Assembly: GCA_021156105.1 (NCBI GenBank)
Contig: JAJNBD010000010.1
Location: 84,870-148,869, forward strand
Reading direction: 5' to 3'
Origin: Gammaproteobacteria bacterium
GTDB lineage: Bacteria; Pseudomonadota; Gammaproteobacteria; CAISUE01
Length of the DNA: 64,000 nt
Below, one piece after another: positions 15,001-18,400 of this stretch. The first letter of the stretch is position 1. Each line of letters starts with the position of its first letter. A program made the position numbers.

Positions 15001-18000
15001 TAAAGTTTTATACGCTTAGTGAAGTATCCTGACTTTAATTTTTCTGGCACTGAAGAAGCATTAAGCCTCCAACCTAGCATTTAAAAAAGATAAGAATTTG
15101 TAATGAAGCCACGCATATCTTGCGTCGTTTATGGCATCAGTGGCAAACCACTCAGCACTATTAAACAGGAATAAACCCATGCGCCATTTTCCGAAAGCAG
15201 AGCTACATGTTCATTTAGAAGGTACTGCAACGCCGTCATTAATAAAAAATCTTTCGCTAACAAAAGGTATTGAGCTTAATCCTAAAATTTTTTCTACGGA
15301 TTTATCGCGCTTTGTCTGGAATGATTTTGCAGATTTCCATAATGTTTTTGAAGAATTCTTTAAAACGATTACTTCAAAAGACGATTATGCCCTTATGGCC
15401 TACCTTTACCTTGCACAATTAGCACAACAAAATTGTGTCTATGCTGAGCTTATTGTTGCCCCCTTCCATGCCATACAAAGAGATATTCCTTATGAACACA
15501 TGCTTCAAGGATTAAGCGATGGCATAGAAAAAGCTCGTGCAGAGTTTGGTATTGAAAGCAGAATTTTGATGGCTCTCATGCGTCATTATGGACCAACCAT
15601 GGCAATGCATGACATTAAGCGAATTACTGAGCAATGCCACCCTTTAGTCGTTGGTATAAATTTAGTGGGTGATATTACGCAATATGAAATTAAAGCATTC
15701 GAACAGGTTTTTGATCATGCGCGTAGCAAAAATCTTCATCTTAGCTGCCATGCCGGCGAAATTGACGGCGGCCCCAAAGAAATGTGGCAAGCCATAAATA
15801 TACTTGGCGTTGAACGTATTAGCCATGGTGTTTCTTGCCTAGAAGATTCAAAGCTCGTAGAGACTTTGATTGAAAAACAAATTACTTTAGAAGTTTGCCC
15901 TAGCTCAAATGTCATTTTAAAGATGTATCCTAGCTATGCCGAACACCCCTTAAGAAAATTAAAAGATGCAGGTTTGCTATTAACCTTAAACACCGATGAC
16001 CCTGGTTTTTTTAATATCAATCTCACGCATGAATACATCGTAGCGCAGCAATATTTTAATTTTTCAGAACAAGAATTACTTGCCGCGACGCAGCAAAGTA
16101 TCCGCGCTGCTTTTATTGAAGAACCATTGAAAAGAAAGCTATTAGAAAAGACTAACTATAAATTTACTTTCTAAAAGCTAAGCTTTTGTTTTTTTATTCT
16201 GAGCAAGATTTTTGCTATCCGTTATTAGCTCGGCCTTTAAAGAGCCACATGCATTACTTGAAGAATATACTTCATTTTTGCCATCCCTGGACACCATGAA
16301 TTTCTGCTTCCATGCAGGAACAATGATACTTTCAATTTTTGTGCGCAGCTGTGATTAGTAGTGAAGCTCCTGCAGAGATTTATCTTCTTGATCTGCTTCT
16401 CGCAATAGCTCAGTTTTTAACTCCGATATATGAAAATGAGTACGGGTATATTGAGCAGCATCAGTCATTGCTGCATGATAAAAGAGCGGAGCTACTGAGA
16501 ATATTGAAGTGTTTTCTTTAGTCCCTTTCACTAGCTTAATCACTTCGCTTTTAAAGCTGCTGCGGCTTTCTGCAGTTTTTTGTGAAGAAAAAAAGCTCAT
16601 CTCTGCATAGGCTCGCTTAGAGAAGCCATTGATTATTATTTTGTGTTTAAAATAAAACTCCTGCTTCTGCGTAAGATCTATTACTTCTAGTTCTGTTAAT
16701 CCAGTCAGCTTGCTTATAATGATGAGCTTAATTTCATGAGGTATATCGGTATAGCCTTGGCGATATCGTAGCAAAACTCTAATTCTTTCCCCATGTTTCA
16801 TCCATGCCCGTGCTTGAGGGATAGTAAAATCATAGCTTTTTACTAATTGATATAATTGAGTAAGTTTCGGCAGGAGCCGCTTATCGGCGCCTAAAACTTT
16901 TCTATCGTTTTCAGGAAAGCAGCTAACAAATTCAAGAGCTAATATATTTCGGGCCAATGGATTTTTTATTTGCATAAGTCCAATAAAAAATTTATGGTAA
17001 GGGTCTTCTTCTCGTCTAGAAACTTGCAGATATAACTCTTCTGCTAGTCTTATGTAATATTTGAAGGTATCTCCGTTAAATGGGGGCATACTGCTAATTC
17101 GCTCTAAAGCGAACAAATAAAATTGTAGCACTTCTCGACTGTTAAACTGATAATCAGATTCCCACGAGAAAAAAGCATCGAGTATTTCCTTAGCTGGCTC
17201 GTTATATACAATTAGGTCTTTTAATAAGTTTAAGCACCCCCTTCTAGCAATTGGAAGGTAATGGAAAACTCTTTTTAAATCTAGTTTATGGCTAAATGAA
17301 ATTTTAATTAAATCCTGAATAGGGATATCATGTTTTTGTTTCGACAAATCACGTAGTAAAACAAAATACTGGTGAATAGCTAACTCGTCCTGGTAATGAG
17401 TAATCATTGTTCCTATCGTGTCATTGTCATCATTTTGCTGTAGCAAAAGCCCTAACAAGTCTTTAGCTGGTATCCCTTGTGTTAATAAATTATTTAGTGA
17501 ATTCAAATAACTTTGTGTGGTTCTTGAGTCTTGGTATCGAGCAATAACCATTCCCAGATTCTGGCTATAGCCACGCCGGCCACCAAATTGCATTTTAAAT
17601 AGCTGGAGTCTTTCTTGTGGAATGGTATTTTCTTCGAGCTTGCTTAAGAAAGCTTGGTATACATCTGGGCAACCACTCGTAAGAGAGATAAGTTGTTGCA
17701 CAATAGCTTCATTGGAAAATGGCATAAAGTTACCCTTTTAAATTTTATTAGTTATTCCTTTTTATGAAGAATTGATACTTGTTTTGCTCTTACAAGGTGT
17801 AAATTTAGCTTTTTACAACGTAGAGAGGTTTATTGTTACATAAAAACTTTAAGGTTTCCTTAAGTCCTTAAGTCTATATCAATACGGACTCTGTGGGGTA
17901 TGAAAATGGTGGGCACGCGCTGTAGGGTGGGCAAAGGAGCGCTAGCGACGTGCCCACCAAAGCGGTAAAAAAAGCCCCTTGCATAGCATTTCATACCCCA

Positions 18001-18400
18001 CAGAGCAATACGGATCCCTGCAGGGGGATTTTATTAGCGTTGTCAACCTGAGCGTCAGCGAAGGATGACATAAATTTTAGAAAATCCTACCTCACAGAGC
18101 AACACGGCTTCTTGTAATGGTCAAGCAGTGCAGAGCAAGTAAGCCCTTCGTGACGCGGTATTTTTCCATCGTTCATTTTTATTAGTGAGAATCTAGTTTT
18201 TAATGCGATCACAGAGCGGCCCAAGTTCGGCGTCATCTCGGAATTTAGCTTTTTTTAGCAGGCTTGCGAACTTAGAAAGCCTTAACATCCAGGATCCAAC
18301 TAGTGCTGGTAAAAAGTTGGTACATCAAGGGGAAAGTAAATTTGGCTCGCATCACGCAAACCCTTGCTAGAACTGGTGCTGAAGAGAGGAATCGAACCTC

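Follow-up and report, generated by a model that had tools for sequence, protein, structure and literature searches.

The stretch of DNA analyzed here, referred to as the window, comprises 64,000 nt of contig JAJNBD010000010.1 (assembly GCA_021156105.1, positions 84,870–148,869 of the forward strand) from an uncultured gammaproteobacterium, and window coordinates are used throughout. It carries a family of five dispersed palindromic repeats: copy D at 887–964, copy A at 17889–18005, copy B at 30359–30466, copy C at 47414–47521, and copy E at 60846–60903. An earlier reading of the same DNA (the sequence-only reading) had recognized three loci and overlooked D and E; its statement that the copies are intergenic holds for all five. 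The copies are 58–138 nt in size, and none of the five contains an open reading frame (ORF). Copy A consists of a repetitive extragenic palindromic (REP) sequence enclosed by terminal inverted repeats (TIRs), which are in turn flanked by a 9-bp direct repeat.

Pairwise identity among the copies is 74–84%. A BLASTN comparison with the full copy A aligned copy B at 74% over 107 nt (E 2e-9) and copy C at 80% over 108 nt (E 6e-16), and thus the similarity, which might have proved insignificant on proper alignment, stands. Inverted-repeat pairs among the copies are 82–86% complementary. The segments 17920–17955 and 30429–30464 are 86% complementary over 36 nt, and 30357–30417 matches 47462–47523 at 82–84%. 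The relative of copy A that had been placed at 30410–30470 is real and inverted, but its extent is wider (30359–30466), and the relative placed at 47395–47535 is real as well. Diagnostic motifs of the family were counted 7, 4, 3, and 2 times, versus 0.30, 0.11, 0.01, and 0.08 expected from shuffled sequences. The motif cacagagcaaYacgg has two sites, at 17999–18013 and 18093–18107 (0.08 expected by chance), the second lying beyond the element, after which extra copies had been noticed.

Could these matches be a chance similarity of GC-rich palindromes, or could the copies be relics of attachment (att) sites tied to the tRNA-Thr gene? Copy A does share its intergenic region with tRNA-Thr, the 5′ end of which is partly duplicated. 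However, the motif counts are 10- to 300-fold above those of the shuffles, no tRNA gene is anywhere near four of the five copies, and the duplication, being of the 5′ end of the gene, has no sequence in common with the repeat family. We regard either explanation as extremely improbable. The tRNA-Thr gene, which one copy had been said to flank, lies about 360 nt from copy A and is not adjacent to it. In the duplication, 18 nt from the start of tRNA-Thr (minus strand) and the 20 nt upstream of them recur at 95% identity 134 nt further upstream (18432–18469 and 18566–18603), and the duplicates are separated by unrelated sequence with a GC-rich hairpin (gcccgcacagggaagtgcgggc).

Copy A, read on the plus strand, begins with the left TIR, CTCTGTGGGGTATGAAA (17889–17905), followed by ATGGTGGGCACGCG (17906–17919), which is the 5′ half of another REP, in inverted orientation, and provides an extra GGTGGGCA arm. 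The right-hand REP of Bradyrhizobium doublets starts with an identical sequence (ATGGTGGGCACGC...). Next are the REP unit itself (17920–17959; CT-GTAG-GGTGGGCA-AAGGAGCGCTAGCGACG-TGCCCACC-A; hairpin z = -2.4), a spacer (17960–17988), and the right TIR, TTTCATACCCCACAGAG (17989–18005). The terminal arms, ctctgtggggtatgaaa and tttcataccccacagag, form a perfect 17/17 inverted repeat around tggtgggcacg...cgtgcccacca (TGGTGGGCACG...CGTGCCCACCA). Outside the arms, 17880–17888 and 18006–18014 both read CAATACGGA on the plus strand; this 9/9 match, a putative target-site duplication, abuts both TIR ends with zero gap (chance at fixed positions ~4e-6). As single-stranded DNA, copy A has a computed folding energy of -38 kcal/mol, versus -18 ± 2.5 kcal/mol for shuffled sequences (z = -7.9). 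Thus, the nested hairpin that had been described at 17881–18013 is present, with perfect 17-nt arms and a strong fold. The right end of copy A recurs in copy C (16/16), in copy B (12/16), and at both ends of copy D (13/16 each), and therefore it belongs to the repeated unit. The full pair of TIRs is intact in copy A and degenerate in copy D, and B and C each have a single recognizable end.

A possible decayed neighbor, A2, follows copy A at 18015–18108 (plus strand). Its left end, CCCTGCAGGGGGA, resembles CTCTGCAGGGTGG of copy B; a direct-repeat pair of 37 nt matches at 76%; and its right end, ATCCTACCTCACAGAG (18084–18099), precedes CAACACGGC, which agrees with the direct repeat of copy A at 7/9 positions. 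As a whole copy, A2 was not detected by nhmmer. Further degenerate [CG]ACAGAGC ends are found downstream, at ~18131 and ~18211. The copy A site may have been hit repeatedly, or the ends may have been reiterated locally, as is known for REP clusters (PMC3733652). The suggestion that the copies mark insertion hotspots is thus borne out in part, by another right end, which is decayed and has the same flank, 94 nt downstream of copy A.

Copy A also differs between assemblies. The window is 100% identical over 17.6 kb to JGI contig Ga0456371_00000017 (L108, L109), and the 7.4-kb JGI locus L001 shows a single difference from the window, a 21-nt indel in the copy A spacer, between 17987 and 17988. 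The 21 extra nucleotides of the JGI allele, GCTTTGCCCACCCTACAATAA, are the 3′ (right-hand) half of the inverted REP, which is missing in the window allele. The JGI allele of copy A thereby contains a full doublet hairpin, in which GTAGGGTGGGCAAAG pairs with CTTTGCCCACCCTAC (z = -7.7). This indel either is polymorphic in the population or arose as an artefact of assembly. A Logan assembly contig of SRR15168755 stops exactly at window position 17918, one base before the REP-containing segment 17919–17959, as would be expected where an assembler meets a multi-copy repeat.

The alignment of copies A, B, and C defines a common unit that consists of CT-GTAG-GGTGGGCA-AAGGAGCGCTAGCGACG-TGCCCACC, a 29-nt A-rich spacer, a truncated inverted unit (GCTTTGCCCACCCTAC), and a tail ending in TTCATACCCCACAGAG. 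With GGTGGGCA and TGCCCACC as its stem, the unit folds into a hairpin. The GTAG head is found at 17922, 47418, and 60846/60903, and copy B has GCAG at this place, which agrees with the GYAG form of such heads. REPs of the GTAG class are those in which a GTAG head precedes a GC-rich palindrome (Nunvar 2010, PMC2817692; Di Nocera 2013, PMC3733652). The core of the family is thus a GTAG-type REP in a head-to-head, REPIN-like doublet, which has decayed in copies B, C, and E.

Copies B and C are a short form. Both start with CTCTG(T/C)AGGG, which is copy A minus the 29 nt between its two CTGT sequences, and they share the derived characters AAAAAGGCATCT and, where A has CCCTACAATAAA, CCCTATAACAAA. 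Since they have the 29-nt loss and these characters in common, they make up a short subfamily, copied once that change had occurred. Copy B lies on the minus strand, with its REP head CTCTGCAGGGTGGGCAAAG running downward from 30466 and its opposite end TTCATGTCTCACCGAG at 30374–30359 (nhmmer E 5.5e-35, with a model built from copy B itself). Copy C lies on the plus strand (CTCTGTAGGCTGGGC...TTGCCCACCCCTAT...TTCATACCCCACAGAG). Copy D, with no strand assigned, is decayed and internally deleted (TTCTGTGGGTTATAAAA ... GGTAGGGCAAAGCGC ... CTCTTGCCAC ... TTTCATACTCCAAAGAC; nhmmer E 4.2e-6), and it is identical in two contigs of other samples that are themselves 99.8% identical to the window. Copy E, also with no strand assigned, is the relic of a short head-to-head REP doublet (GTAGGATGGTCACC...GGTGCGCTTTGCCCATTCTAC) without the outer inverted repeat, and was detected with an 18-mer with two mismatches (0.04 expected by chance). 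The folds of B, C, D, and E have z = -0.2, -1.7, +0.2, and -0.8 relative to shuffles. Copy A is the sole structurally intact copy of the five and is probably young; the others are relics.

When one genome per species was searched with a degenerate pattern of the unit, at least 100 loci matched, and none of the loci listed is syntenic with the window. Among the loci listed, the majority are from Bradyrhizobium or Xanthobacteraceae; the others are from GC-rich gammaproteobacteria with a GGTTGGGCA/TGCCCAAC variant and from metagenome-assembled genomes (MAGs) of AT-rich Legionellales or Legionellaceae. In Bradyrhizobium, the unit is the left half of a classic head-to-head doublet, GTAGGGTGGGCAAAGGCGCGCTAGCGCCGTGCCCACC - 20–25 nt - GGTGGGCACGCTTCGCTTTGCCCACCCTAC. 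The REP of copy A is 39/39 identical to REPs in L027, L022, L038, and other loci, and to Bradyrhizobium loci. At variable stem position 6, the base pair is G:C in 153 of 212 units and T:A in 16, with ~5 mismatched (Fisher p = 2e-20), and this compensatory change between G:C and T:A shows that the hairpin itself is conserved. A scan of a metagenome collection, which does not contain the source contig, gave only five matches, all representing one Bradyrhizobium-like locus, and BLAST of the full copy A against a plasmid collection gave no match.

The 38–39-nt REP at 17922–17959 is 100% identical between this MAG, with ~40% GC, and Bradyrhizobium, with ~63% GC (L010, L021, L028, L031, L056–L058, L062, L077, L080, L081, L095, L098). 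Such identity across classes implies either very strong constraint by a REP-associated tyrosine transposase (RAYT) or transfer between classes, and the same puzzle has been raised for the Coxiella element QMITE2. At two contig starts (L016 108–140 and L039 108–140), the REP is broken after GTGCC by the conserved sequence GTGCGACCGG... (GTGCGACCGGTATGG). We had guessed that the interrupting sequence is the 5′ end of a group II intron, but we dropped the idea because it has no Rfam support.

The REP flanks RAYT genes in related genomes. In Legionellales bacterium RIFCSPHIGHO2_12_FULL_37_14 (L027), inverted REPs at 4321–4359 and 4920–4958 bracket a 173-aa ORF, one 33 nt before its ATG and the other 5 nt after its stop codon. 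Against NCBIfam NF047646, 'REP-associated tyrosine transposase' (cut-off 80), this ORF reaches 182 bits, and it matches Pfam Y1_Tnp as well. The right-hand REP is 39/39 identical to window 17922–17960. RAYT homologues were also found amid dense GTAGGGTGGGCA REPs on a 2.28-Mb contig (L113), a 3.05-Mb contig (L114), and five short contigs (L115–L119), with GC contents of 0.37–0.40; L113 14605–14712 is a perfect doublet hairpin (z = -13). The RAYT homologues P0039, P0051, and P0004 belong to other samples than the source genome.

Two other MAGs, CAVXEK (L022, L050, L054, L063, L087, L097) and JAUYQG (L046, L102), each harbor several RAYT pseudogenes with internal deletions, every one of them set between inverted REPs and with ~60 nt of conserved sequence outside the REPs. 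Since RAYTs are usually single-copy, the REP-RAYT-REP unit in these MAGs seems to have multiplied like an insertion sequence (IS) and then decayed.

[quoted passage not shown] Of the possibilities raised in the sequence-only reading, MITE/REP-like mobile relics are supported by the identity of the REP to RAYT-flanking REPs, by the 17-bp TIR and 9-bp repeat of copy A, and by the decay of the other four copies. In the mechanism that we propose, the REP hairpins would owe their origin and spread to their being single-stranded-DNA substrates for a RAYT (HUH/Y1) acting in trans; hairpin recognition and cleavage on single-stranded DNA are established for the E. coli RAYT. The full-length shell would have been inserted by a DDE-type transposase making a 9-bp staggered cut, encoded elsewhere in the genome or lost, as the single duplication at copy A suggests. 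Copies B–E would then be old insertions undergoing neutral decay in long intergenic regions upstream of orphan genes.

The likeness to QMITE2 is one of published architecture, not of aligned Coxiella sequence. In C. burnetii, full-size QMITE2 has TIRs of 17–31 bp and direct repeats of 7–13 bp, mostly 9 bp, that are unique to each copy (Wachter et al. 2018, PMC5896051). It has an internal GTAG REP, small versions without ~40 nt at the 5′ end and without direct repeats, and relatives of its core in Bradyrhizobium and Rhodopseudomonas that are without the TIR half (PMC5896051). The present family agrees in the TIR length (17 bp in copy A) and the 9-bp direct repeat of its one full-size copy, in the internal GTAG REP, and in a small form that lacks a 5′ part (29 nt in B and C) and has no discernible direct repeats. 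The two also have in common their intergenic or 3′-of-gene position, a core found in Bradyrhizobium repeats, and conservation of copies between strains. They differ in length, which is 150–190 nt for QMITE2 versus 117 nt (window) or 138 nt (JGI allele) for copy A, and in the REP stem, which is GGGTGGGCA here versus the Coxiella REP GGTTGGGC listed by Nunvar et al. Furthermore, no IS1111 insertions were seen in the present copies, and the host is another, uncultured bacterium.

Among other known systems, REPINs and their RAYTs (Nunvar et al. 2010, PMC2817692; Bertels & Rainey 2011, PMC3116915) resemble this family in the GTAG-headed palindromic REP, the head-to-head long-hairpin doublet, the bracketing of the RAYT gene by the same REP in related genomes, and the extragenic occurrence in several copies, here five in 64 kb. 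However, REPINs have no separate TIR or target-site duplication, whereas copy A has both. The GTAG-14 REPs of Bradyrhizobium and Rhodopseudomonas (Di Nocera et al. 2013, PMC3733652) have a 38–39-nt unit, GTAGGGTGGGCAAAGGAGCGCTAGCGACGTGCCCACC, that is up to 100% identical, form head-to-head dimers 20–100 bp apart, and occur in long-loop and short-loop variants. They are found in hosts with ~63% GC rather than ~40%, and the lineage-specific ends of the window copies (TTCATACCCCACAGAG) are absent from all Bradyrhizobium loci fetched. Classical MITEs such as Correia elements and ERIC are likewise ~100–150 nt long and intergenic, with TIRs and strong hairpin potential, but the duplications that they give are TA or short, and they have no relation to REPs; for the present family, a parent IS is not known. 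Since copy A departs from REPINs in its TIR and duplication and from QMITE2 in its length, we class it as a REP-derived miniature element of QMITE2-like design in a new host.

Is a transposition shell needed at all? The family could instead be purely of the REPIN type, or of the type of bacterial interspersed mosaic elements (BIMEs), and made and moved by RAYT only. The outer 'TIR' would then be a diverged REP head, and the 9-bp repeat would be a local tandem reiteration. The outer arm, CTCT-GTGG-GGTATGAA, does agree with the head, CTCT-GTAG-GGTGGGCAA, in 13 of 17 nucleotides, and REPs with a GTGG head are a variant already known (PMC3733652; PMC2817692). Local reiteration would also account for the second right end downstream of copy A, with its near-identical flank CACAGAGCAACACGG, and for the degenerate ends beyond it. 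However, the 9/9 repeat abuts both TIR ends exactly, which is a signature of staggered-cut transposition. The Coxiella element of the same architecture has a distinct direct repeat, of 7–9 bp, at each copy (PMC5896051), and the doublets of L113, L114, and Bradyrhizobium occur without such a shell. An origin from RAYT only is therefore rather unlikely.

Several observations weigh against the interpretation as a REP doublet in a MITE-like shell. RAYT/IS200-type transposition yields neither TIRs nor target duplications, and therefore two mobilization routes are needed for copy A. A tblastn search of the window found no RAYT, the 8.8 kb upstream likewise encode none, and no other transposase domain was found among the ~50 window ORFs or in the same 8.8 kb. 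The duplication is seen only at copy A, with no direct repeats discernible around B, C, D, or E, and the outer TIR does not occur in 831 kb of loci taken from other genomes. The copy number covers ~73 kb, and the sole known contig of the genome is 775 kb.

What surrounds the copies? The gene downstream of each copy belongs to no Pfam family (ORFs of 606, 456, 546, 468, and 843 aa), and one of these has a marginal OTU domain; the ORF at 47611–48594 has a marginal match to OTU proteases. The earlier description of the neighbors as effector-like is thus plausible, to the extent that each copy lies upstream of a gene that is without a Pfam family or OTU-like. The 173-aa ORF at 50964–51485 (plus strand) contains a eukaryotic Synaptobrevin/SNARE domain (Pfam PF00957, 49 bits, cut-off 26). 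Eukaryote-like proteins such as this are of the kind seen in intracellular bacteria. The OTU- and SNARE-like proteins, together with the 40% GC content and the relatives of the REP and RAYT, suggest a possible affinity of the host to Legionellales.

Exact matches to a promoter-like box, TTAAG-N6-TTAAG (period 11), are found at only five sites in the window, 990–1006, 17849–17872, 47547–47562, 53569–53584, and 60774–60789, whereas other AT-rich loci, 171 kb in all, have none. Of the five boxes, four are 16–55 nt from copies D, A, C, and E, and copy B has a variant box, TTAAT-N10-TTAAG, at ~30318–30340. At B, C, E, and 53569, a TATAAT sequence comes 10–11 nt after the box, and an orphan gene comes next. 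The linkers between copy and box are unrelated in sequence, and at copy A the box lies outside the direct repeat, and therefore the box is not part of the mobile unit. An orientation bias of the copies toward the boxes was considered and rejected, as the end that copy A turns to its box is not the one that B and C turn to theirs. The PmrA consensus reportedly described by Zusman in 2007 is cTTAATatT-N2-cTTAATatT. The arrangement in the window is similar to the PmrA-regulon box of Legionella and Coxiella, itself a tandem repeat, and looks like a lineage-specific promoter class for effector-like genes, served by a PmrA-like response regulator. The role of PmrA has been described (PMC6989116). 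The proximity of box and copy may reflect a target preference, selection, or shared long regulatory intergenic regions, and four or five cases cannot decide among these.

Are the copies kept for a function, as an insulator or terminator, a stabilizer of mRNA 3′ ends, a small RNA (sRNA) gene, or part of the regulatory region of the effector-like genes? Copy B starts 6 nt past the stop codon of the preceding gene and copy C 36 nt past that of an EamA gene, both just upstream of the promoter-like box of the next gene, and the closeness of four of the five boxes to a copy would fit such a role. QMITE2 gives rise to an sRNA in Coxiella, CbsR16 (PMC5896051), and copy D is unchanged in the two strain variants. 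On the other hand, B, C, D, and E no longer fold stably, the linkers to the boxes are unrelated, the box of copy A is beyond the direct repeat, and the 74–84% identity among the copies is what neutral decay predicts. No terminator-like sites were predicted at B, C, or E; one such site, at 18015–18027, is just outside copy A. At the gathering threshold, Rfam matched two tRNAs only and no repeat, and at E <= 5 over 17700–18380 it gave nothing meaningful. A function that maintains the copies is thus highly unlikely.

It is also conceivable, but distinctly unlikely, that the element is a true chimera, in which a RAYT-type REP doublet in a shell of TIRs and target-site duplication is open to two unrelated transposition systems. 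Such an element would be inserted preferentially, or retained, 16–55 nt upstream of the TTAAG-N6-TTAAG (N10-11) TATAAT promoters of orphan effector-like genes.

Two further features of the window lie apart from the repeat family. The segments 58807–58876 and 63731–63800 form a 70-nt direct repeat, 81% identical and 4.9 kb apart; one copy is inside a 174-aa orphan ORF (58691–59215), the other is near the window end, and the pair may represent paralogous genes. The arginyl-tRNA synthetase (ArgRS) at 43817–45577 has best non-self relatives that are ~60–72% identical, including those of Parachlamydiaceae and Waddlia. Its sequence suggests a chlamydia-type ArgRS in a gammaproteobacterial MAG; the identical protein bears the NCBI label 'MAG: Gammaproteobacteria bacterium'. 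We considered this gene as a taxonomic marker, but with relatives at this distance, chlamydial ones among them, it does not place the organism.

REPs, REPINs, RAYTs, the GTAG families of Bradyrhizobium and Coxiella, and QMITE2 have all been published, and the present family leaves the knowledge of REPs, REPINs, and MITEs unchanged; only the association with the box and the idea of a chimera of two systems could be new. For the genome itself, the copies break assemblies, are not the same in all assemblies of one population, and tag the long intergenic stretches lying upstream of orphan genes. Interpreted as a REP doublet in a MITE-like shell, the family would be a second, independent case of the QMITE2 design, a GTAG REP within a shell of TIRs and a 9-bp duplication. 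The REP core, up to 39/39 nt, is common to ~40%-GC, Legionellales-like genomes and to ~63%-GC Bradyrhizobium, which favors regarding QMITE2-like elements as derived from REP/RAYT and not as a peculiarity of Coxiella. If the chimera and its connection to the boxes proved true, the repeat family would mark, and possibly modulate, a virulence-type regulon.

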